DNA of 64,000 bases from an uncultured Clostridium sp. GTDB lineage: Bacteria; Bacillota; Clostridia; Oscillospirales; Acutalibacteraceae. The translations under genes were made by a program, and so were the position numbers. The notes under the pieces were generated by a model, which saw only the letters and a list, made by a program, of their open reading frames with translations, had not been told where the DNA came from and did not search any database. Shown piece after piece: positions 9,823 through 36,331 of the stretch. Every line of letters starts with the position of its first letter. The stretch's first letter is position 1. The stretch is from assembly GCA_964571095.1 (NCBI GenBank), contig CAZNAC010000003.1:11840-75839 (forward strand), given 5' to 3'.

Positions 9823-9906
9823 TGGTGCACCTGACAGGGCTTGAACCTGCACATCGAAGATACCAGATCCTAAATCTGGCGCGTCTGCCAATTCCGCCAC
9901 AGGTGC
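9823..9906 (-). tRNA. tRNA-Leu (anticodon UAG), CCA encoded
   Basis: Folded by hand. 7-bp acceptor stem GCACCTG/CAGGTGC, 3-bp D stem, anticodon stem CCAGA/TCTGG with loop TTTAGGA (anticodon TAG), long variable arm (class II), T arm GCAGG-TTCAAGC-CCTGT, 3' ACCA. Confidence 0.92.
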
Positions 9907-24879: not shown

Positions 24880-25125
24880 CTATGATATTCAAAAGGCAAG
24901 GAAAAGAAGCAGTATTCAATCGGTATTTTCAGAGAGAGAGCGGTCGGTGAAAGCTCTTATTATTCGATTGTTGAACCCATCTTGGAGCCGCATACCGAAA
25001 TTTCAGTAAGCTATGCCGGAAATCCACCGTTATCGGATAATGAGAGCGGATTTTTATCCGAACTCGGGTGGTACCGCAGACTGTATTTGTTTGTCCCGAG
25101 CCTAACGGCTTCGGGATTTTTTTAT
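24880..25125 (+). promoter_or_regulatory. T-box riboswitch leader (proline specifier) controlling proS
   Basis: Stem I elements AGAGAGAG...GGTGAAAGC are present. The specifier-loop candidate GAA-CCC-A (CCC 24976-24978 or CCA 24977-24979) gives a Pro codon either way. The conserved T-box AACTCGGGTGGTACCGCA is at 25061-25078. The terminator tcccgagcc-taac-ggcttcggga plus T7 is at 25094-25123. Confidence 0.88.
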
Positions 25126-25140
25126 TGGAGGTTAAAATAT

Positions 25141-26856
25141 ATGAAAATTGACAAACTTTGTGGAGAACGTTTTAAGGAGAAGCCCTCTGATTGCGTTATT
25201 GACAGCCATGCGCTTATGCTCAGAGGCGGATATATGAAGGGCGTTGCAAACGGTATTTATTCTTCGTTTATGCCCTTGAGAAGAATTACAAGAAAAATCG
25301 AAAACATTATCCGAGAGGAAATGGATGCGATTGACGGTCAGGAGGTTCAATTTCCCGTTGTTATGCCCGCCTCGCTTTGGGCTGAATCCGGAAGATATGA
25401 CAGCATCGGCAGTGAGCTTATGCGTTTTAAAGACAGAAACGATGCTCCGATGGTTCTCGGTATGACTCACGAAGAAGCAGCCGTTCAGCTTGTCAGAGAA
25501 TATGCAAACAGCTACACCAAATACCCCTTTATGATCTATCAGATTCAAACAAAGTTTCGTGACGAGGCAAGACCGAGAGGCGGTCTTATCAGAGTTCGTG
25601 AATTTACAATGAAAGACGCCTATTCTTTCCACACTTCTCAAGAAGATCTTGAAAGATACTATGATATCTGCTACAAGGCATATGAAAGAATCTTTGCAAG
25701 AGCCGGAATACCCGAGGTTATTACGGTTGCATCCGATTCCGGTATGATGGGCGGAAGTATATCACACGAATATATGCTCCTCTCCCCCATTGGCGAGGAT
25801 TCTATTGCCGTTTGCTCCGAATGCGATTACAGAGCAAATATGGAAGCTGCCGAAAGCATTATAGAAAACAAAATCGAGGGCACATCAAACGAGCTTGAGC
25901 TTGTTTACACGCCCGATATACATACAATTGAGGATATTTGCGAATTTCTCAAAACTCCTCTTGAAGAATCCTGCAAAGCTGTTGTTTATCAGAAAAATAT
26001 GACAGATGAATATGTTGTCGTTTTTGTCAGGGGTGACCTTGATGTTAACGAAACAAAGCTCACAAACTATCTCTGTGAAAACGTTCATCCTGCCGTTATT
26101 ACCGATGATTGCGGTCTTTTCGCAGGCTTTATCGGTCCCTATAATCTCGACACTGAAAAATTCACTGTACTTTTTGATAAATCTCTTGAAAACACCCATA
26201 ATCTTTCTTGCGGTGCAAATCAGCTCAATTATCACTATAAAGGTCTTAAAATCAGCAGAGATATCGGCGATGTTGAATACATTGACCTTGCAAAAATCAA
26301 GGAGGGCGGAATCTGTCCCAAATGCGGAAAGCATTCTATCGGAATTTCAAGAGGTATTGAAGTCGGCAATATCTTTCAGCTCGGCACAAAATACACAAAA
26401 TCAATGGGTATGCAATATATTGACAGTGAAGGAAACCTTCACTACCCAATTATGGGTTGCTACGGTATCGGCGTTGGTAGACTTGCGGCATCGGTTTGTG
26501 AAGCACATCACGATGAATACGGCCCGATATGGCCTATGTCAATCGCACCTTGGCACGTTCAGCTTTGCTGTTTAAGAGCGGATGATGAGGAATGCAAAAA
26601 CGTTTCCGATGAGCTTTACGGCAAAATGCTCGACGATAAGATGGAAGTTATTTATGATGACAGAAACATACGCCCCGGTGCAATGTTTTCAGATGCCGAT
26701 CTTCTCGGTGTTCCGGTCAGAGTCATCGTCAGTCCGAGAAACCTCAAGGAGGGCGTTTGCGAAATAGTTACAAGAGATAAAGAAATCAGCATAAAAGTTG
26801 AAGTGGATAAGGTTATCGATACCGTCAAAAACGTTATCAGCGAAAGACTTAAATAA
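25141..26856 (+). CDS. proS: Proline--tRNA ligase (class II, bacterial type with editing-domain insertion)
   Basis: Class II motifs (FRDEARPRGGLIRVREF, GCYGIGVGR). Start ATG 25141 has GGAGG upstream. The ORF-track extension back to 24982 runs through the T-box leader and is rejected. Confidence 0.93.
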   Translation: MKIDKLCGERFKEKPSDCVIDSHALMLRGGYMKGVANGIYSSFMPLRRITRKIENIIREEMDAIDGQEVQFPVVMPASLWAESGRYDSIGSELMRFKDRNDAPMVLGMTHEEAAVQLVREYANSYTKYPFMIYQIQTKFRDEARPRGGLIRVREFTMKDAYSFHTSQEDLERYYDICYKAYERIFARAGIPEVITVASDSGMMGGSISHEYMLLSPIGEDSIAVCSECDYRANMEAAESIIENKIEGTSNELELVYTPDIHTIEDICEFLKTPLEESCKAVVYQKNMTDEYVVVFVRGDLDVNETKLTNYLCENVHPAVITDDCGLFAGFIGPYNLDTEKFTVLFDKSLENTHNLSCGANQLNYHYKGLKISRDIGDVEYIDLAKIKEGGICPKCGKHSIGISRGIEVGNIFQLGTKYTKSMGMQYIDSEGNLHYPIMGCYGIGVGRLAASVCEAHHDEYGPIWPMSIAPWHVQLCCLRADDEECKNVSDELYGKMLDDKMEVIYDDRNIRPGAMFSDADLLGVPVRVIVSPRNLKEGVCEIVTRDKEISIKVEVDKVIDTVKNVISERLK

Positions 26857-27170: not shown

Positions 27171-28055
27171 ATGAGCAGCAAGAAAAATAATAAGACAATT
27201 TTTGCGGGACTTTTTTTATTAATCGTTATTGTTTGTTTTGCCGGTTTTAAGCTTTTAAAACCAAATAACGGAAACGAAATTACGCAAGCATCAAGTGCCG
27301 GCTCAAGCATTATAAATTATACGTCGAATGTTATAACATCAACCAAAAAAATAACTCAAATTATAACAGAATCCGCAACAAGCAAGCCGTCAACTACCGC
27401 TCCCGTTTCCAAAACGACAAAAAAGCATACTGCTTTTGCATCGAAAACAACCGAAAAGGCTGTTGAAACATACACTCGACAGTCTACTGAAGGTGTATAT
27501 GACTACAGTTGCTTCGATAACTGTGCGTTTTTGGGCAATTCAAGAGTACTTGCTCTCAAGACATACAGCCTTGTCAAAAATGTTTACGGAGCAGTCGGTT
27601 TAACTGTTGACACGGTATTCACCAAATCCGCACCCGGAAGCAGCGTGCCGGTTATCGATGAGCTTAACGGAAAACATTTTGATAAAATCTTTGTTCTTTT
27701 CGGCGATAATGAATGTGGTTGGCCAAACACGGAAGTTTTTATCGAAAGATATGTCAAGGTTGTTAATGCGGTGAAAGAACGAGTACCGGAAGCGGAGATT
27801 TATATTCAGTCAATTCTTCCCGTCAGCAAGCACGAGGACGACACTTCAAAATACGGTTGCAGCAACCAAAGAATCAATGAGCTGAACGTTAAAATAAAAG
27901 AAATGGCTATAAGAGAAAATGTTAAATACATCAATCCCGCCGAAGCTCTTAAAGATTCATATGGCAGACTTCCCGATGATGCGGCAAGCGACGGCGTACA
28001 TCTTAACAAAAAATCCTGCATAATCTGGTTGAATTATTTAGTAGAAAACGCATAA
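27171..28055 (+). CDS. Membrane-anchored SGNH/GDSL-like hydrolase
   Basis: N-terminal TM, Ser/Thr/Lys-rich linker, SGNH blocks FLGNSR (block I Ser), FGDNE (block III) and DGVHLN (block V DxxH). Confidence 0.7.
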   Translation: MSSKKNNKTIFAGLFLLIVIVCFAGFKLLKPNNGNEITQASSAGSSIINYTSNVITSTKKITQIITESATSKPSTTAPVSKTTKKHTAFASKTTEKAVETYTRQSTEGVYDYSCFDNCAFLGNSRVLALKTYSLVKNVYGAVGLTVDTVFTKSAPGSSVPVIDELNGKHFDKIFVLFGDNECGWPNTEVFIERYVKVVNAVKERVPEAEIYIQSILPVSKHEDDTSKYGCSNQRINELNVKIKEMAIRENVKYINPAEALKDSYGRLPDDAASDGVHLNKKSCIIWLNYLVENA

Positions 28056-28088
28056 TATAGTATGAATATATTTTTGAGGAAACTAAAA

Positions 28089-28553
28089 ATGAAAAAAACA
28101 TCTATTATCTTACTGATTACGCTTTTTATCTCTGTTTTACTTTTCGGCTGCAACAACAATAGCAACAATAATTTTGATGTTAATGCGGCAGCCGATACTC
28201 TGAATGAAAATCTGACCTTCGGCGAACCTCTCGAAAAAAGCTCCGCCGAAGCACTTTACTCACTTTTCGGAATTGATTCGTCTCTCTGTACCGATGCGGC
28301 ATTTTACGCCGGAAGCGGTGCAACCGCAGATGAAATTGCGGTTATAAGCTGTGTTGACAGCAATGCCGCCAATACTGTTCTTGATGCAGTCAATTCACAT
28401 TTAAAATATCTTGAAGACGGATACAGCAGCTACGGTCCGGATCAGGTTCCCAAAATCCAATCTGCTGCCGTTATAACTTTGGGTAACTCGATTGTTATGT
28501 GTATATGCGAAAATCCCGATGCCGTCAAAGACTTATTGATTTCAAACGAATAA
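28089..28553 (+). CDS. DUF4358-like lipoprotein
   Basis: Lipobox LLFGC. Its size and position between the SGNH and MBOAT genes match clostridial DUF4358 proteins. Start ATG 28089 has GAGGA upstream. The ORF track starts at 28062. Confidence 0.6.
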   Translation: MKKTSIILLITLFISVLLFGCNNNSNNNFDVNAAADTLNENLTFGEPLEKSSAEALYSLFGIDSSLCTDAAFYAGSGATADEIAVISCVDSNAANTVLDAVNSHLKYLEDGYSSYGPDQVPKIQSAAVITLGNSIVMCICENPDAVKDLLISNE

Positions 28554-28571
28554 TTTTATCGGAGAATAATT

Positions 28572-29969
28572 ATGGTTTTTTCTGAACCTGTTTTTATGTT
28601 CTTATTTTTACCTATAACACTGCTGATTTATTATGCGGTTCCGTTCAGGTATAAAAATGCGGTTTTGTTTTTAACGGGACTTCTGTTTTATTCTTGGGGA
28701 GAACCGGTTTATGTGTTTATAATGATTCTTTCGACTCTTATTGACTACTTTGCCGGAAGAATTATGGCAAAATTTGATGATAACGAAAGAATCAGAAAGC
28801 TTGCATTATTAATTTCCGTTGTAATGAATCTTTCTTTGCTCGGTATTTTTAAATACAGCGGATTTTTCATTGATTCGGTCAATTCTATTTTTGGAGCTTC
28901 GCTGTATAATCCCAATCTTCCCCTGCCTATCGGCATTAGCTTTTTCACATTTCAATCAATGTCGTACACAATCGATTTATACAGAAGAAATATTACGGTT
29001 CAAAAAAGCTTTGTAAAGTTTTCCGCATTCGTTTCTATGTTCCCGCAGATTGTTGCCGGTCCGATAGTCCTCTATGACGATGTTGCAAAAGAGCTTGAAG
29101 AACGCAAAATCAACTTTGAAGATATAAGCGAAGGAATCTCGATTTTTATCTGCGGTCTTTGCAAAAAGGTTTTGATTGCCAATTCCGTCGGTGAGCTTTG
29201 GACCGACATTAAGGCGATGGATTATTCCTCTCTCCCACTTGCAACAGCTTGGCTCGGAATTATTGCTTTCACGCTTCAGATTTATTTTGATTTTTCAGGA
29301 TATAGCGATATGGCGGTAGGACTCGGAAAAATGCTCGGCTTCCATTTCCCGAAAAATTTCGATTATCCTTACAACTCAAAAACCGTCAGCGAATTTTGGC
29401 GAAGATGGCATATGACACTCGGCGGTTGGTTTAAAAGCTATGTTTATTTTCCTCTCGGCGGAAGTCGCAATGGAAAAGCAAAAACTATTCGTAACCTTTT
29501 CATAGTTTGGTTTTTAACCGGATTATGGCACGGAGCAAGCTGGAATTTTATTATCTGGGGACTTTATTACGGAATAATACTTATCCTTGAAAAGTTTGTT
29601 TTTTCCTCTGTAATAAAAAAGCTTCCCGATTTTGTTACAAGAATTTATACATTGCTTGCCGTTGTTATCGGTTGGGTAATATTTGAAATCACCTCACCCA
29701 TCGATGAGCTTGGATTTATCGGTGCTATGTTCGGATTCGGCGGCTCTTTATTCGACGGATTCACTTTAAACGTTCTTCATAACTATTCTGTAATCCTCAT
29801 TGTTGCAGCAATTACCGCAACAGGTTTGCCTTTGAAGCTTTGGAAAAAATTTGTTTCCAACAAAAAGCTTGACGGAGTTTGTATTACCGGTGAAATTGCG
29901 GGAATGGCAGCTTGCATAGCTTATCTTGTTGATGCATCGTATAATCCGTTTTTATATTTCAATTTTTAG
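28572..29969 (+). CDS. MBOAT family O-acyltransferase (AlgI/DltB/PatA-like)
   Basis: Polytopic protein with motifs FWRRWHMTLGGWFKSYVYFPLGGSR and GLWHGASWNF, which contains the conserved MBOAT His. Confidence 0.88.
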   Translation: MVFSEPVFMFLFLPITLLIYYAVPFRYKNAVLFLTGLLFYSWGEPVYVFIMILSTLIDYFAGRIMAKFDDNERIRKLALLISVVMNLSLLGIFKYSGFFIDSVNSIFGASLYNPNLPLPIGISFFTFQSMSYTIDLYRRNITVQKSFVKFSAFVSMFPQIVAGPIVLYDDVAKELEERKINFEDISEGISIFICGLCKKVLIANSVGELWTDIKAMDYSSLPLATAWLGIIAFTLQIYFDFSGYSDMAVGLGKMLGFHFPKNFDYPYNSKTVSEFWRRWHMTLGGWFKSYVYFPLGGSRNGKAKTIRNLFIVWFLTGLWHGASWNFIIWGLYYGIILILEKFVFSSVIKKLPDFVTRIYTLLAVVIGWVIFEITSPIDELGFIGAMFGFGGSLFDGFTLNVLHNYSVILIVAAITATGLPLKLWKKFVSNKKLDGVCITGEIAGMAACIAYLVDASYNPFLYFNF

Positions 29970-29978
29970 GAGCATCCA

Positions 29979-31097
29979 ATGAAAACTAAGCTTCTCAGAA
30001 TTTTTATCTTTTTTCTCATTATTCTTATTATTCCGATTTTTACCTTTTTCGGTAAAAAAGAAACAGTAAGCTATAATGAAAACAAAACGCTTGCCGAACT
30101 TCCGACACTATCCTTTGAAAGTTGGAAGAATCGCTCGTTTATGACAGGACTTGCAGATTATTTTTCGGATCATTTTGTTTTAAGAGAAGATTTTATAAAA
30201 TTAAAAAATTCAATAGAAAAAGCAATAGGAAAAAATGAAATTAACGGTGTGTTTGAATATAACGGAAATCTTATTCAAACGTTCAAAAACATCGATTATA
30301 AGCTTACAGACAGAAACATTGCATCGTTAAATAAACTTAAAAAACGTTACGACAGCACTCCGTTTTACTTTGTTCCGGTTGTAACGGCACAGCAAAAGTA
30401 TTCTGAATTTCTTCCCGAATATCTTAATCTCAATAACGAAAAAGAATATGTTGATTACTGCTTCAATAAGCTTACCGGAATCGAAAAAATCGATGTCTCT
30501 GCCGAAATATGCGAAATCGATTATTCCTTTTATAAAACCGATCATCATTGGACTACTGATGCGGCATATGAAGCATACAGAAAGCTCGGCGATTATCTCG
30601 GTTTTAAAGCAATGGACAAAGAATATTTTCAGATCGAAACGATTTCCGACAGCTTCAAAGGCACTCTTTATTCAAAAACCCTGAACGAAAAAATCTTATC
30701 GGACAGTATTGTAGCATATAAAAGTAATTCCGATTTCACATTAAAAATCAAAGATGATGAATATGATTCGTTATATTTTGATAAGTTTTTGAATGAAAAA
30801 GATAAATATTCCTATTTTCTTTCCGGTAATCACGGAATCTGCGTTATCGAAAACAAAGGGATTTCACAGGATAAAGAATTACTTGTTATAAAAGACAGCT
30901 ACGCAAACTGCTTAATTCCTTTTTTGGCAGAGCATTATTCAAAAATAACACTTGTTGATCCGAGATACTGTTCACACACCCAAATAAAAGAAATTGAGCC
31001 GTCAAGCTATAGTGCGGTTCTTGTTCTGTTTAATGTTTCCGGATTTTCACAGGAACAAAGCTTCTCACTAATTGAATTTATGGGAGATAAACAATGA
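29979..31097 (+). CDS. DHHW family protein (AlgJ/AlgX/PatB-like extracytoplasmic acyltransfer partner)
   Basis: N-terminal TM anchor and the eponymous motif YKTDHHWTTDAAYEAY. It lies directly downstream of the MBOAT gene. Confidence 0.8.
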   Translation: MKTKLLRIFIFFLIILIIPIFTFFGKKETVSYNENKTLAELPTLSFESWKNRSFMTGLADYFSDHFVLREDFIKLKNSIEKAIGKNEINGVFEYNGNLIQTFKNIDYKLTDRNIASLNKLKKRYDSTPFYFVPVVTAQQKYSEFLPEYLNLNNEKEYVDYCFNKLTGIEKIDVSAEICEIDYSFYKTDHHWTTDAAYEAYRKLGDYLGFKAMDKEYFQIETISDSFKGTLYSKTLNEKILSDSIVAYKSNSDFTLKIKDDEYDSLYFDKFLNEKDKYSYFLSGNHGICVIENKGISQDKELLVIKDSYANCLIPFLAEHYSKITLVDPRYCSHTQIKEIEPSSYSAVLVLFNVSGFSQEQSFSLIEFMGDKQ

Positions 31098-31185: not shown

Positions 31186-31217
31186 ACCGTCATCTTTTTT
31201 TGATGACGGTTTTTTTA
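31186..31217 (+). terminator. Rho-independent terminator after the DHHW gene
   Basis: Stem accgtcatc / gatgacggt, T7 loop, then T7 tail. Confidence 0.75.
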
Positions 31218-31325
31218 AAAAATAAGCATTTTTTTGAATTTGAGGATTTAAAAATCACACTATATATGTTATTATATAAGATAAAGTAATATTTAATAAG
31301 TTAATAATTGTTATTGGAGGAATAT

Positions 31326-32231
31326 ATGAAGCACTTACTTAAACTTATGGATTTGAGCACCAATGAAATCAACGAGATTCTTAATCTTGCCGATCAGCTC
31401 AAATACGAAAAAAAGAACGGAATCGAGCACCATCTTCTCAAAGGAAAAACATTGGGAATGATTTTTGCAAAATCTTCAACCCGAACAAGAGTTTCTTTTG
31501 AAGTCGGAATGTATGACCTTGGCGGAACGGCTCTTTTCTTAAGCTCTCACGATATTCAGCTTGGCAGAGGAGAACCCGTTAACGATACCGCACGAGTTCT
31601 TTCCGGTTATCTTGACGGAATAATGATCAGAACCTTTGACCAGAGCGATGTTGAAACTCTTGCTCAATTCGGTTCGATTCCCATTATTAACGGTTTAACG
31701 GATTATTGTCATCCCTGTCAGGTTCTTGCCGACCTTATGACGATTCGTGAATGTAAAGGCTCTATCAAGGGTGAAAAGCTTTGCTACATCGGCGACGGTA
31801 ACAATATGGCAAACTCTCTTATTGTCGGCGGAATTAAAATGGGTATGTCCGTCAGCATCGCTTGTCCCGAAAACTATAAGCCCGATGCGGAAATTATGAA
31901 ATGGGCAAGCGAAAACGGAGATTTCACCTGCACAACCGATATTCTTGCCGCCGCAAAGGATGCAGATGTTCTGTATACCGATGTTTGGGCATCTATGGGA
32001 CAGGAAGACGAAGCGGAAGAAAGAAAGAAAATCTTCAAAGGATACCAAATCAACGATGATGTTATGGCGGTTGCAAAGAATGATGCAATGGTTCTTCATT
32101 GCCTTCCCGCTCACCGTGAAGAAGAAATCACCGCAAAGGTTTTTGAAGCTCACGCAAATGAAATTTTTGAAGAAGCCGAAAACAGACTTCACGCACAAAA
32201 GGCGGTTCTCGTTAAGCTTCTGAAGGATTAA
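31326..32231 (+). CDS. argF: Ornithine carbamoyltransferase
   Basis: STRTRVSFE (carbamoyl-phosphate site), HPCQVLADL, DVWASMGQE (SMG loop, ornithine-specific) and HCLPAHR. Start ATG 31326 follows GGAGG. Confidence 0.9.
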   Translation: MKHLLKLMDLSTNEINEILNLADQLKYEKKNGIEHHLLKGKTLGMIFAKSSTRTRVSFEVGMYDLGGTALFLSSHDIQLGRGEPVNDTARVLSGYLDGIMIRTFDQSDVETLAQFGSIPIINGLTDYCHPCQVLADLMTIRECKGSIKGEKLCYIGDGNNMANSLIVGGIKMGMSVSIACPENYKPDAEIMKWASENGDFTCTTDILAAAKDADVLYTDVWASMGQEDEAEERKKIFKGYQINDDVMAVAKNDAMVLHCLPAHREEEITAKVFEAHANEIFEEAENRLHAQKAVLVKLLKD

Positions 32232-32252: not shown

Positions 32253-35200
32253 ATGCCAATTAATAAAAACATAAAAAAAGTAATGGTTATCGGTTCTGGC
32301 CCTATCGTTATCGGTCAGGCGGCGGAATTTGACTATGCGGGAACACAGGCTTGCCGTGTTCTTAAAGATGCAGGTCTTAATGTTGTTCTTGTTAACTCAA
32401 ATCCCGCAACAATAATGACCGATAAGGCTCTTGCAGACGAAATCTATCTTGAACCGCTTACCGCCGAAACTGTCAAAAGAATTATAGAAAAAGAAAAACC
32501 CGACAGTCTTCTTGCCGGTCTTGGCGGACAAACCGGCTTAACAATTGCAATGCAGCTCAGCAAAGACGGTTATCTTGACAAGATGGGCGTTAAGCTTCTC
32601 GGAACAAATGCCGAAGCTATTGATAAAGCTGAAGACAGAAAAATGTTCAGAGATACTATGGAATCCATAAATCAACCCGTTATTCCGTCTGAAATTGCAA
32701 ACGATGTTGAAACCGCACTTGAAATAGCCGAAAAAATCGGTTATCCCATAATCATCCGTCCTGCATTTACGCTCGGTGGCGGCGGCGGCGGTGTTGCGTA
32801 TAATCCGGACGAGCTTGCAGTTATAGCAAAAACAGGACTTGACCTCTCCCCCATCACTCAGGTTCTTGTTGAAAAATATATTTTCGGTTGGAAAGAAATT
32901 GAATTTGAAACAATGCGTGACAGTGCCGGAAACTGTATCGCCGTTTGCAGTATGGAAAACTTCGATCCCGTCGGAATACATACCGGCGACAGTATTGTTG
33001 CTGCTCCTGCACTTTCGCTCACAGATGAAGAATTTGCAATGCTCCGCAAAGCTTCTCTTGATATCGTTGATGCTTTGGGTATTATCGGCGGCTGTAACTG
33101 TCAATTTGCACTTGATCCTAACAGTATGAATTATGCTGTTATTGAAGTTAACCCCAGAGTTTCGCGTTCATCCGCTCTTGCAAGTAAGGCAACAGGTTAT
33201 CCTATTGCAAAGGTTACCGCAATGCTCGCACTCGGAATTACTCTTGACGAAATTAAAAACGATGTTACGGGACTTAACTGTGAAAAATTTGAACCCGACG
33301 TTAAATACATTGTTGTTAAGCTTCCCAAATGGCCGTTTGATAAATTCGGAAATGCAAGCCGCAGGCTCGGTACTCAAATGAAGGCAACCGGCGAAGTTAT
33401 GTCGATCGGTCCTACATTTGAAAATGCAATAATGAAAGCTGTCAGGGGTGCGGAAATTTCTCTTGACACTCTCAACGCAACACCTAAGGTTAAAGCTCCT
33501 CTTGAGGACAGATTGAGAAACACCGATGATATGCGTCTTTTCTCTGTCTTTGAAGCAATCAAGAGTGGAATGCCGATTGAAAAAATTCACGATATAACCA
33601 AAATAACCGAATGGTTCCTTTATAAGCTTAAAAATCTTGCTGATTTTGAAAAATCAATTGAAAACGGCAATCTTACCGAGGAGCTTTATAATCAAGGAAA
33701 GAACTACGGTTATACAGATGCAGCACTTAAACGCCTTTCCGGTGTTAAGGAGCTTGCCTTCCATAAGGATGCCGTTTATAAAATAGTTGACACCTGTTCA
33801 GCTAACTTTCCCGTTGCCGCACCTTATTTTTACTCGGTATACGATGAAAAATGTGAAGCAAGACCTTTCCTTGAAAACAACAAAAAGAAAAGAATTATCG
33901 TTCTCGGTTCCGGTCCCATCAGAATCGGTCAGGGTATTGAATTTGACTATTCATCGGTACATTGCGTATGGACTCTTAAAAAGCTCGGCTATGAGGTTGC
34001 CATTATCAATAACAATCCCGAAACCGTTTCAACCGATTACGATACTGCGGACAGGCTTTATTTTGAACCGCTTACTCCGGAAGATGTTATGAACATCATT
34101 AAAGTTGAAAAACCCATCGGCGTTGTTGTTGCATTCGGAGGTCAAACCGCAATAAAGCTTACGAAATTCCTCGATGAAAACGGAATTACCATTCTCGGAA
34201 CATCTGCCGACGGAATCGACACAGCGGAGGACAGAGAGCGTTTTGATGAGCTTCTTGAAAAATTCGCTATCCGCAGACCTAAAGGTATGGGCGTTATGTC
34301 AAAGCAGGAAGCACTTAACGCAGCCAATACTCTCGGCTACCCCGTTCTTCTTCGTCCCTCCTATGTTATCGGCGGACAAAATATGACAATTGCTCACTCC
34401 GATGCCGATGTTGAGCACTATATGGATATTATTCTTTCGGGTGAAATCGAAAATCCTGTTTTAGTTGACAAATATATGATGGGTACCGAATTGGAGGTTG
34501 ACGTTATTTCCGATGGTAAGGACGTTCTTATTCCCGGAATTATGGAGCACGTTGAAAGAGCAGGCGTTCACAGCGGTGACTCAATTGCCGTTTATCCTCC
34601 GTACAACCTCAATGACAAGATGCGTGAAAATATCTGCGATGTTTCCGAAAAGCTTGCACTTTCGCTCGGTACAAAAGGTCTTGTTAACATTCAATACCTT
34701 ATTTATCATAATCAGCTTTATGTTATCGAGGTTAACCCCAGAGCATCAAGAACTATCCCCTATATAAGCAAGGTAACCGGTGTTCCTATGGTTGACATCG
34801 CATCAAAGGTTATGATCGGTCAGTCACTTAAAGAGCTTGGATATGGCACAGGACTTTACAAAACGCCTCCTTATTATACGGTTAAGGTTCCCGTATTCTC
34901 TTTTGAAAAGCTTTCGGACGTTAACTCAATTCTCGGTCCCGAAATGAAATCAACCGGCGAAGTTCTCGGTATAGGAAAAACAACCGCCGAAGCACTTTAC
35001 AAAGGATTAACCTCGGCAGGTTTCAAAATTCAGCTCCCGACTGCCGATAAAAATATCGGTATTCTTCTCAGCGTTGACAGCCACGATATGCTTGATGCTG
35101 TTTCACTTGCCAAAAAGCTTGATGACCTCAAGATTAAAATTTACGCAACCAAAGAAACAGCCGACGCAATTTCACAGCTCGGAATCGATGTTGAGTACGT

Positions 35201-36293
35201 TAACAGCAGACACGATGATAACTCCGAAATTTACAAGCTTCTTGAAAGCGGAAAAATTGACTACGTTGTTTATACCGGAGCACTTCAAGATTCAACAATG
35301 GGTGACTACATAGCACTTCACAGAAGAGCTGTTCAGCTTTCAATTGCCTGCATCACCTCTCTTGATACGGCGAACGCTCTTGCCGATATCATTGCAAGCC
35401 GTTTCAACCAGCAAAACACCGAGCTTGTTGATATCAATAATATGCGTTCGGAAAGAAAGTCACTTAAATTTGCTAAAATGGATGCATCCGGAAATGACCA
35501 TATTGTTATTGAAAACTTTGACAATTCTATCACTTGCCCCGAGAGTCTTTGCGTAAGCCTTTGCGACAGAAACCACGGAATCGGAAGCGACGGCGTTATC
35601 CTTGTTGAAAAATCCGATGTTGCACAGGTTAAAATGAGAGTATTTAATCTTGACGGCAGTGAAGGAAGAATGGGCGGCAACGCAATGCGTTCCGTTGCAA
35701 AATATGTTTTCGATAAAGGTTATATCGATACCGAAACAATAACAATTGAAACCGCAAGCGGCGTTAAAAGCGTTGACCTCTACACAATGAACGGAAAGGT
35801 AACCTCGGTTTGTGCAAATATGGGCAAAGCCGATCTTGATAACGCTGTTACGAGCACAATCGGTACAAACAGATTTATTGACTATCCCACTATCATCAAC
35901 GGTCAGGAGCAAAGAATTACCTGCGTTTCAATGGGCAATCCGCATTGCGTTGTTTTTGTTCCCAGAGTTGATACAATTGATATCGAGAAAATCGGTCCCA
36001 AATTTGAAAAAGCAGATATTTTTGCTCATAGAGTTAACACCGAATTTGTCAGAGTTGTTAACGAAACCACGCTTAAAATGAGAGTTTGGGAACGCGGTAA
36101 CGGTGAAACCCTTGCCTGCGGTACAGGTGCTTGCGCTGCGGCTGTTGCGGCTGTTGAAAACGGTTACTGCAAAAAGAATACAGACATAACCGTTAAGGTT
36201 AGAGGCGGCGACCTTATTGTTAACTACAGCGACGAAGGCGTTTACCTGACCGGCTCGATAAAGCTTGTTTTTGAAGGAACAGTTGAATATTAA
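32253..36293 (+). CDS. carB: Carbamoyl-phosphate synthase large subunit fused in frame to a C-terminal diaminopimelate epimerase (DapF)-like domain
   Basis: Residues 1 to about 1068 are full-length CarB: two ATP-grasp halves (VMVIGSGPIVIGQAAEFDYAG and IIVLGSGPIRIGQGIEFDYS) plus an MGS-like tail. Residues about 1071-1346 (nt 35463-36290) align end to end with B. subtilis DapF as I recall it (MRVFNLDGSEG.., SMGNPHCVVFV, WERGNGETLACGTGACAAAVAAV). It is a single uninterrupted ORF. Confidence 0.88.
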   Translation: MPINKNIKKVMVIGSGPIVIGQAAEFDYAGTQACRVLKDAGLNVVLVNSNPATIMTDKALADEIYLEPLTAETVKRIIEKEKPDSLLAGLGGQTGLTIAMQLSKDGYLDKMGVKLLGTNAEAIDKAEDRKMFRDTMESINQPVIPSEIANDVETALEIAEKIGYPIIIRPAFTLGGGGGGVAYNPDELAVIAKTGLDLSPITQVLVEKYIFGWKEIEFETMRDSAGNCIAVCSMENFDPVGIHTGDSIVAAPALSLTDEEFAMLRKASLDIVDALGIIGGCNCQFALDPNSMNYAVIEVNPRVSRSSALASKATGYPIAKVTAMLALGITLDEIKNDVTGLNCEKFEPDVKYIVVKLPKWPFDKFGNASRRLGTQMKATGEVMSIGPTFENAIMKAVRGAEISLDTLNATPKVKAPLEDRLRNTDDMRLFSVFEAIKSGMPIEKIHDITKITEWFLYKLKNLADFEKSIENGNLTEELYNQGKNYGYTDAALKRLSGVKELAFHKDAVYKIVDTCSANFPVAAPYFYSVYDEKCEARPFLENNKKKRIIVLGSGPIRIGQGIEFDYSSVHCVWTLKKLGYEVAIINNNPETVSTDYDTADRLYFEPLTPEDVMNIIKVEKPIGVVVAFGGQTAIKLTKFLDENGITILGTSADGIDTAEDRERFDELLEKFAIRRPKGMGVMSKQEALNAANTLGYPVLLRPSYVIGGQNMTIAHSDADVEHYMDIILSGEIENPVLVDKYMMGTELEVDVISDGKDVLIPGIMEHVERAGVHSGDSIAVYPPYNLNDKMRENICDVSEKLALSLGTKGLVNIQYLIYHNQLYVIEVNPRASRTIPYISKVTGVPMVDIASKVMIGQSLKELGYGTGLYKTPPYYTVKVPVFSFEKLSDVNSILGPEMKSTGEVLGIGKTTAEALYKGLTSAGFKIQLPTADKNIGILLSVDSHDMLDAVSLAKKLDDLKIKIYATKETADAISQLGIDVEYVNSRHDDNSEIYKLLESGKIDYVVYTGALQDSTMGDYIALHRRAVQLSIACITSLDTANALADIIASRFNQQNTELVDINNMRSERKSLKFAKMDASGNDHIVIENFDNSITCPESLCVSLCDRNHGIGSDGVILVEKSDVAQVKMRVFNLDGSEGRMGGNAMRSVAKYVFDKGYIDTETITIETASGVKSVDLYTMNGKVTSVCANMGKADLDNAVTSTIGTNRFIDYPTIINGQEQRITCVSMGNPHCVVFVPRVDTIDIEKIGPKFEKADIFAHRVNTEFVRVVNETTLKMRVWERGNGETLACGTGACAAAVAAVENGYCKKNTDITVKVRGGDLIVNYSDEGVYLTGSIKLVFEGTVEY

Positions 36294-36297
36294 TTTT

Positions 36298-36331
36298 ACA
36301 GGCAGTCTTGCGTTCAAGACTGCCTGTTTTT
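36298..36331. terminator. Bidirectional terminator between convergent carB and spoVM
   Basis: 12-bp stem acaggcagtctt / aagactgcctgt, followed by TTTTT on the plus strand and by an A/T-rich stretch on the minus strand. Confidence 0.8.

Follow-up and report, generated by a model that had tools for sequence, protein, structure and literature searches.

A widespread fusion of the carbamoyl-phosphate synthase large subunit to a DapF-derived module that lacks one catalytic cysteine in an uncultured Clostridium and many of its relatives

We analyzed a 64,000-nucleotide stretch of DNA from an uncultured Clostridium sp. (assembly GCA_964571095.1, contig CAZNAC010000003.1, positions 11,840 to 75,839 of the forward strand; hereafter, the window), which contains an open reading frame (ORF) joining carB, the gene for the large subunit of carbamoyl-phosphate synthase (CPS), to a sequence derived from dapF, the gene for diaminopimelate (DAP) epimerase. 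This fusion, termed carB::dapF, is real, ancient and widespread. The DapF-derived part of the window protein, like that of most of its relatives, has lost the first of the two catalytic cysteines of the epimerase and has kept the DAP-binding pocket. On the strength of sequence comparison we give a probability of about 50% to the reading that the protein is the large subunit of an arginine-pathway CPS equipped with a non-epimerising, ligand-binding module of DapF origin. Both halves are known enzymes, and the fusion is a variant of known families rather than a new kind of system; their combination was not found described in the literature searched, which is no proof of absence. The initial annotation of this DNA likewise did not know the architecture as a described one, and we found no paper on a CarB–DapF fusion in a search that left most subscription journals and the domain-architecture databases outside its scope.

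The carB::dapF gene (32253–36293, + strand) appears in the ORF list as a single ORF of 1346 amino acids (aa) with an ATG start, preceded by a Shine-Dalgarno-like AAGGGGG about 8 nucleotides (nt) upstream. Its product comprises a full CarB (aa 1–1065; 32253–35447), the five-residue linker SERKS (35448–35462) and a DapF-derived module with a complete two-lobed fold (aa 1071–1346; 35463–36290), all on the + strand and with no stop codon or frameshift between the parts. The junction reads ...LVDINNMR-SERKS-LKFAKMDASGNDH..., and the surrounding DNA (35340–35580) holds no stop codon, gap, change of frame or arrangement of ribosome-binding site (RBS) plus start; the position of the initiating Met of free-standing DapF is taken by a Leu codon, CTT, at 35463–35465. 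Pfam assigned to the protein the whole CarB domain set followed by two DAP_epimerase repeats, and the NCBIfam models NF003671 (CarB) and TIGR00652 (DapF) matched the two parts nearly end to end. These results bear out the in-frame fusion of a full CarB with a full DapF-like domain that had been noted from the sequence.

By profile score and domain order, the CarB part is a member of the CarB family. It scored 1411.5 bits against the CarB equivalog NF003671 (cut-off 599; aa 1–1050, profile positions 1–1049 of 1058) and 1374 bits against TIGR01369 (cut-off 1027), and E. coli CarB aligns with the fusion protein through residue 1051. The Pfam domains occur in the CarB order (CPSase_L_D1 and CPSase_L_D2 twice each, CPSase_L_D3 and MGS), laid out as two pre-ATP-grasp plus ATP-grasp units, an oligomerisation domain (aa 420–495) and an MGS-like allosteric domain (aa 949–1035; nt 35097–35357). 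In its complete domain order, its scores above the equivalog threshold and the encoding of its fused relatives with carA and arginine genes, the protein resembles both E. coli CarAB (1a9x, 1bxr and 1jdb) and the arginine-specific CarB of Bacillus; it departs from them by about 280 additional C-terminal residues, i.e., the DapF module.

The same fusion was found in many other genomes. An identical 1346-aa protein is encoded by a Logan contig from SRR14160763 and listed in an NCBI record, and another 1346-aa member of the same 90% cluster, MBQ3006861.1, comes from a metagenome-assembled genome (MAG) and is named ‘carbamoyl-phosphate synthase large subunit’. When the last 407 aa (MGS plus DapF) served as the query, at least 120 clusters at 56–91% identity were recovered from MAGs of Clostridia, Oscillospiraceae, Ruminococcaceae and Eubacterium, nearly all with PF02142 (MGS) plus PF01678 (DAP_epimerase). 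The protein matches listed were all partial (705 aa or less) and did not include the full-length cluster of the window protein; full-length ORFs were therefore checked on genomic DNA, and the recurrent 501- and 636-aa proteins are treated as partial gene calls from a conserved internal Met rather than as a separate architecture. A scan of GTDB species representatives yielded 590 relatives, the best 80 of which provide the counts of loci, contexts (10 kb on each side) and groups given below. About 75 of these 80 match across the junction, so that the recurrence in related taxa on which the initial annotation had made its case depend is evident, and the ORF running through the match measures 1305–1463 aa in nearly all loci free of contig ends.

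Cultured hosts include Ruminococcus sp. FC2018, Ruminococcaceae bacterium AM07-15 and Oscillospiraceae bacterium CM74B_53B, and the fusion is also carried by a complete Christensenellaceae MAG chromosome assembled from HiFi reads. Outside the Clostridia it occurs in Treponema/Spirochaetaceae (loci L035, L044, L054, L055, L060, L065, L067 and L078), Selenomonadaceae (L024) and Gracilibacteraceae (L069 and L073). The Treponema copies carry insertions after positions corresponding to window aa 502, 540, 1159 and 1206. Across the family the linker varies in sequence and is constant in length (identical in 67 of 68 full-length copies), and the flanks of the junction, NTELVDIN.MR ... L.F.KM, are homologous in all copies of both groups described below—a combination that argues for one ancestral fusion event. 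Clustering at 50% left about ten representatives of the fused family, which by this measure is compact in sequence space though spread over many species.

We also considered whether an error of sequencing or assembly, or a recent read-through that joined two separate genes in the manner of a pseudogene, could account for the ORF. We found no support for this explanation, to which we assign a negligible probability: the identical protein occurs in independent assemblies, the same junction is present in about 75 species (cultured isolates and the complete HiFi chromosome among them), no internal start-plus-RBS arrangement exists at the junction, and the ratio of nonsynonymous to synonymous substitution rates (dN/dS) lies far under 1 in both halves. 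This wide recurrence and purifying selection rule the artefact out; a lost stop codon or frameshift, or a fusion restricted to this one assembly, is excluded by the roughly 75 species and by many metagenomes. As a separate observation, DapF domains also stand at the C-terminus of other long proteins, namely P0180 (1046 aa), P0187 (742 aa), P0194 (687 aa) and P0199 (692 aa), and at the N-terminus of P0224 (776 aa), indicating that DapF has been fused to other partners too.

The C-terminal module belongs to the DapF family by both sequence and predicted fold. It matched the DapF equivalog TIGR00652 with 258–261 bits (cut-off 114.65; aa 1072–1344, profile positions 2–268 of 270) and Bacillus anthracis DapF (2otn) with 218 bits, and it stayed under the cut-off of 350 for NF038284, the Chlamydia-type bifunctional DapF/glutamate racemase, with 114–118 bits. 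In an AlphaFold2 model of the last 407 aa (mean predicted local distance difference test score, pLDDT, of 87, and >90 across most of the DapF part), the module adopts the two-lobed DapF fold, with template modeling (TM) scores of 0.81–0.90 to solved DapFs. The best match in Foldseek was the ligand-bound cyanobacterial DapF 9mro (TM score of 0.90, root-mean-square deviation of 2.0 Å). The aligned identity amounts to 34% with E. coli DapF and to 39–40% with 2otn and 9mro, the best matches among the solved structures.

The DapF enzyme is active as a dimer and shuts around its substrate like a clamshell, epimerising it by a two-base mechanism in which two thiols form the acid/base pair. The canonical motif around the first of them, CGNGxRC in three solved DapFs, aligns to GGNAMRS in the window protein. 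Numbered by alignment with E. coli DapF, the first catalytic cysteine (Cys73, also in H. influenzae numbering) corresponds to Gly1141, encoded by GGC at 35673–35675 (+), and the second (Cys217) to Cys1289, encoded by TGC at 36117–36119 (+); Asn11 corresponds to Asn1081 and Tyr268 to Phe1340. The catalytic cysteine pair of the window module is thus incomplete, Gly1141 standing in the place of Cys73; the module contains all of the DAP-binding residues (Asn11, Asn64, Gly74, Asn75, Asn157, Asn190, Glu208, Arg209, Gly218 and Ser/Thr219). Compared with known DapFs (2otn, 9mro, 4ijz and 1bwz/2gke), it therefore shares the fold, the binding residues, the second cysteine and the dimerisation aromatic, and differs in the Cys73 replacement, in having no start codon of its own, in its covalent link to CarB and in adjoining neither dapL nor any other DAP gene.

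The replacement of Cys73 extends to much of the family. Position 1141 is Ala in 104, Gly in 15, Ser in 1 and Cys in none of the 120 protein clusters; the 54 Cys-less species of the GTDB set have Ala (36), Gly (13), Ser (4) or Phe (1). Stand-alone DapFs, by comparison, retain Cys73 in 101 of 103 readable representatives and in all five cases among the GTDB loci, so that the loss is essentially confined to the CarB-fused context. The agreement between the 120 clusters and the GTDB loci marks it as a family trait and not as a sequencing error. Cys217, for its part, is invariant throughout the fused and stand-alone sequences compared. Within the Cys-less group, the equivalents of Asn64, Gly74, Asn75, Asn157, Asn190, Glu208, Arg209 and Cys217-Gly-Thr are conserved at 94% or above, most of them without exception, and the same residues are invariant or nearly so in Cys-retaining fusions and stand-alone DapFs. 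At the position of Tyr268, the aromatic dimerisation residue of E. coli DapF, 118 of 119 sequences have either Tyr or Phe; in the E. coli enzyme, Y268A yields a monomer devoid of detectable epimerase activity (PMC6061791). The module averages 54% pairwise identity across the family, and its dN/dS in close pairs of the Cys-less group (0.06–0.32; 0.02–0.14 for the Cys-retaining module) is comparable to that of the CarB part of the same genes (0.045–0.23, i.e., strong purifying selection)—an indication that the Cys-less module is not decaying.

Variation around the reacting center is found on one side only. The equivalent of Asn11 (window aa 1081; nt 35493–35495) shows a nearly even split in the 120 closest protein clusters, with 61 Asn against 60 Asp, and residue 76, three positions beyond the lost cysteine, is highly variable in the fused family; all variable positions lie on the N-lobe side, and the C-lobe side is invariant. 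The alignment columns of the Cys-less group revealed no conserved residue that could compensate for the missing thiol. Cys1095 was rejected as a candidate since it is present in just 30 of 54 species, a Cys at +3 (‘AGNC’) since it occurs in a minority of the clade, and the discriminating columns 1085, 1088, 1168 and 1267 since they are implausible as bases. Being a member of the DapF family by sequence and fold that nevertheless lacks the catalytic dyad, the module is, on these comparisons, to be called DapF-derived and not a DapF enzyme.

The loci of the GTDB set fall into two forms: a Cys-less group A (54 species plus the window) and a Cys-retaining group B (21 species). Group-B fusions, e.g., those of Ruminococcus sp. 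FC2018 (L033), Ruminococcaceae bacterium AM07-15 (L047) and the Christensenellaceae MAG chromosome (L059), share the architecture, the homologous junction and the linker length of the window protein, with 60–66% identity to it in the CarB part and 45–58% in the DapF part; unlike the window protein, they have the catalytic cysteine in an MCGNG/A motif, keep the equivalents of the CarB lysines K954 and K993 discussed below, and typically lie near dapL rather than among arginine genes. Their typical gene order is (glnA-ANTAR)-carA-carB::dapF-(pyrG)-dapL, the downstream gene being recognized as LL-diaminopimelate aminotransferase, dapL, by TIGR03542 (491 bits). This aminotransferase makes the substrate of DapF. 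The order in group A is argB-argD-argF-carA-carB::dapF. We found dapL adjoining 10 of the 21 group-B loci versus none of the 55 group-A loci (Fisher p = 3.7e-7), and argF adjoining 18 of the 55 group-A loci versus none of the 21 group-B loci (Fisher p = 0.0018), both p values being descriptive, as related species were counted as independent.

A neighbor-joining tree of the DapF domain, rooted on Bacillales DapF, placed the Cys-retaining fusions at the base, mixed with stand-alone DapFs, and most Cys-less fusions in one large derived clade. From this topology we infer that the Cys-retaining form is the older one and the Cys-less form derived. The Treponema copies are nested inside the Cys-less Clostridia clade, which suggests horizontal transfer. 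The Cys-retaining, dapL-adjacent fusions are probably genuine bifunctional CarB/DapF enzymes. Since the older form has both cysteines and dapL for a neighbor, the fusion probably did not arise as a sensor, as an addition of a ligand-sensing domain to CarB would imply, but as a plain bifunctional enzyme. A second dapF, dapL or carA was found neither within the window nor within 10 kb of the fused loci; an extra ‘dapF’ match in L031 proved to be the fused module itself, frameshifted near its end. We further observed, in an uncultured Ruminococcaceae MAG (L079; CAJFOJ010000010.1, 6921–14410), the order glnA-ANTAR-carA-dapF-pyrG-x-dapL, in which a stand-alone dapF of 292 aa with both cysteines starts in overlap with the stop codon of carA, with no carB between them. 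It looks as if the carB segment had been excised from a fused ancestor in this case, or the fusion otherwise undone.

The two groups also differ in the effector site of CarB. In the allosteric domain of E. coli CarB, K954, K993, N1015 and T1017 are the residues in contact with uridine and inosine monophosphate (UMP/IMP), with K954 and K993 as the phosphate-binding lysines. The window protein has M946, S985, Y1007 and G1009 at these four positions and keeps the equivalents of S948, T974 and T977; the nucleotide effector site of E. coli CarB is, hence, absent in this form. In addition, the equivalent of E892, the ornithine-contacting residue, is Val in the whole fused family. The K954 equivalent is kept in 19 of 19 group-B sequences and in 16 of 49 of group A, the K993 equivalent in 18 of 19 and 21 of 49, respectively, so that the nucleotide-effector lysines seem often to have decayed in group A. 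A nucleotide effector site is not universal among arginine-specific CPSs.

Taken together, these observations are compatible with the following evolutionary path. Within a carA-carB-dapF-(pyrG)-dapL neighborhood, a single event would have joined dapF to carB at the 3′ end of the latter, giving a bifunctional CarB/DapF that would survive in group B (e.g., in Ruminococcus sp. FC2018). The first catalytic cysteine would then have changed to Gly, Ala or Ser in the derived group A, the gene would have come to lie in arginine operons with dapL no longer adjacent, and the nucleotide-effector lysines of CarB would have decayed in much of the group. The module would have kept the DapF clamshell and the DAP pocket, in which Cys217 alone could not complete a stereoinversion—an enzyme domain converted into a sensor or scaffold domain and kept for binding a DAP-like ligand, for holding the CPS oligomer together, or for both. 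The allosteric domain of other CPSs contributes one interface of the tetramer and is the site at which allosteric signals arrive. With the module tethered to this domain by a five-residue linker, ligand-dependent closure and/or dimerisation offers the most economical mechanism; closure upon ligand binding, DapF-type dimerisation beside the allosteric domain, or both could modulate or stabilize the CPS oligomer.

A loss of DapF catalysis is physiologically plausible. Cells can bypass DapF with meso-DAP dehydrogenase (Ddh). A dapF deletion in E. coli is without growth defect, and DapF2, an unrelated epimerase, occurs in Firmicutes (bioRxiv 10.1101/2024.10.14.618325)—two findings that together make such a loss tolerable. 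The sensing role that the initial annotation had put forward remains plausible for the window module, given that Cys73 was lost while all the DAP-binding residues stayed invariant. In a more specific form of this idea, the Cys-less module would have newly evolved within CPS into an allosteric sensor or else a one-base enzyme, and the output of carbamoyl phosphate for arginine synthesis would be tuned directly by a diamino-dicarboxylate, whether LL-DAP, meso-DAP or a related compound. We regard this as a tentative proposal, possible though on balance doubtful. If it holds, clamshell closure on DAP would take over from the nucleotide control that the MGS domain has lost, and in Treponema and the Clostridia of gut and rumen the metabolism of arginine or nitrogen would be coupled to the status of cell-wall and lysine precursors.

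Several points weigh against a non-epimerising, ligand-binding module. The strict invariance of Cys217 exceeds what passive binding would need, and one-base chemistry could have been retained. A regulation of an arginine-pathway CPS by DAP has no obvious physiological reason. In group-A genomes without another route to meso-DAP (stand-alone DapF, DapF2 or Ddh), the module would still have to epimerise. The confidence of the AlphaFold2 model drops at the junction (pLDDT of 54–69, with a predicted TM score of 0.70), too low for the model to define how the DapF module would touch the allosteric domain. A few Cys-less sequences are scattered among the Cys-retaining ones in the neighbor-joining tree, which rests on ~280 residues and is without support values, leaving the number of independent cysteine losses uncertain. 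The descriptive character of the Fisher p values for gene context belongs here too.

The invariance of the pocket and of Cys217 could also mean that both activities, CarB and DapF, persist in the protein, the Gly, Ala or Ser variant epimerising well enough with water in place of the thiol, or with Cys217 and solvent exchanging the proton. Selection on the module as strong as in the Cys-retaining group agrees with this explanation, as does the replacement of Cys73 by small residues that leave room for water (the one Phe aside); the older, dapL-adjacent fusion was very probably a working DapF, and very low epimerase activity is tolerated in E. coli. We nevertheless judge it unlikely. Both thiols are needed to form the acid/base pair of the two-base mechanism, and single Cys-to-Ala mutants of DapF have reportedly lost epimerisation in the work of Koo, Blanchard and Vederas. 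The C73A/C217A double mutant of the E. coli enzyme has no detectable epimerase activity (PMC6061791). With 101 of 103 readable stand-alone DapFs keeping Cys73, an active enzyme is rarely without it; moreover, group A has no conserved compensating residue and has lost the adjacency to dapL.

Alternatively, the module might be purely structural, with DapF-type dimerisation bridging two allosteric domains for folding or assembly alone, free of any ligand. The fixed linker length in both groups, the aromatic kept at the dimerisation position and the fold predicted with high confidence would all fit such a role, for which the inactive dihydroorotase (DHOase)-like domain that persists in yeast Ura2 (a CPSase–aspartate transcarbamoylase) provides a precedent. 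A structural role leaves unexplained, however, why some ten pocket residues and Cys217 are nearly invariant in a module with 54% mean identity, and we hold it to be quite unlikely. A last explanation, which we deem distinctly improbable, is that the module has come to transform a DAP-like substrate by a new chemistry with a single base, for instance by eliminating, dehydrating or isomerising it or by making use of the carbamoyl phosphate produced next door. Here the strict retention of Cys217 beside the loss of Cys73 would find a direct reason, along with the clustering of changes on the N-lobe side (position 73, the 61/60 Asn11/Asp split and residue 76). The one-base enzymes PhzF and trans-3-hydroxy-L-proline dehydratase share the fold and both appeared in the fold search, and the O-ureidoserine racemase DcsC, a close DapF homologue, acts on a ureido (carbamoyl-type) substrate. 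Yet Gly, Ala and Ser are chemically non-uniform at position 73, no gene for a candidate substrate or partner is conserved beside the group-A genes apart from those of arginine synthesis, and the residues of the distal site are unchanged—pointing to DAP itself as the ligand.

The proposed conversion of a DapF domain into a ligand-binding module has partial parallels in known systems. E. coli DapF serves as a protein activator of RppH (PMC6061791), and in this complex (6d13 and 6vck, both of them also matched in the fold search) the DapF fold likewise acts as a regulatory partner, separate from the epimerase reaction; there, unlike in the fusion, DapF is a separate and catalytically intact protein, bound non-covalently to a partner unrelated to CPS. 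The DHOase-like domain of Ura2 is similar in concept, having lost a catalytic residue and been kept beside CPS, and so are PhzF and trans-3-hydroxy-L-proline dehydratase, in which one of two bases was lost and the chemistry changed. All three concern other domains, positions and organisms, and none represents a DapF fused to CarB.

The two forms of the fusion bear on the reconstruction of lysine and DAP pathways in gut and rumen anaerobes. Annotation pipelines name full-length copies ‘carbamoyl-phosphate synthase large subunit’ and fragments ‘diaminopimelate epimerase, partial’. Pathway reconstruction may accordingly credit genomes of the Cys-less clade with a working DapF, where the module is probably inactive, and naming the protein as plain CarB may hide a real DapF in the Cys-retaining clade. 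The family may also represent a natural series from stand-alone DapF through an active fused DapF to a fused DapF without one catalytic cysteine but with its pocket intact, and would then lend itself to the study of the transition from an enzyme domain to a regulatory or structural domain. Should the module sense DAP, this would introduce a new effector logic for CPS, a much-studied allosteric enzyme, in abundant anaerobes of the gut and rumen.

In the window, carB::dapF follows argF (31308–32231, +; NF001986 with 445 bits against a cut-off of 306, and TIGR00658 with 428 bits) after a gap of 21 nt. The ornithine carbamoyltransferase encoded by argF uses carbamoyl phosphate in arginine synthesis. 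Upstream, a promoter-like site matching the consensus only (TTTAAA-17-TATTAT with a TG extension; 31247–31275, +) precedes argF, and a terminator-like hairpin that ends the upstream DHHW-family gene (31186–31210, +; a 9-bp stem with five GC pairs and a T-run) marks the left boundary; on the right, a strong intrinsic-terminator-like hairpin (36298–36327, +; a 13-bp stem with seven GC pairs and a T-run) begins 5 nt past the carB::dapF stop codon. Bracketed by these hairpins, argF-carB::dapF looks like a two-gene arginine operon. The link between arginine/pyrimidine precursor synthesis and the lysine/peptidoglycan pathway that had been drawn from the fusion consequently stands as far as the DapF-derived fold is concerned, which is real, and fails for the window copy in terms of context, which is an arginine operon outside any lysine or peptidoglycan setting.

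No carA homologue was found between argF and carB::dapF, nor anywhere else in the 64-kb window, which sets this copy apart from CarB systems with an adjacent CarA partner. The same holds near the closest relatives (L002 and L003) and L031, as opposed to 48 related loci with carA directly upstream. The large subunit of the window may work with ammonia alone, or carA may lie elsewhere in the genome. Searches against Rfam detected no riboswitch or leader upstream of argF; the only matches in the window were a T-box leader (RF00230, 125 bits; 24890–25101, +), situated at the 5′ end of the prolyl-tRNA synthetase (proS) ORF (24982–26856), and a single tRNA gene (RF00005, 55.7 bits; 9826–9906, −). 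The T-box overlaps the mechanically called TTG start of proS, and the true start codon therefore probably lies further downstream.

On the opposite strand, rsgA converges on the right-end hairpin as part of a conserved fmt-rsmB-rlmN-stp-prkC-rsgA block, and the genes identified beyond the edges of the window were of the housekeeping type only. Upstream of the arginine operon (27171–31097, +) are genes for a GDSL-like lipase/acylhydrolase, a DUF4358 protein, a DltB-like protein that scores under its model cut-off and is probably of the MBOAT type, and the DHHW-family protein mentioned above. These genes probably form a cassette for the acylation of a cell-surface polymer, unrelated to the fusion.

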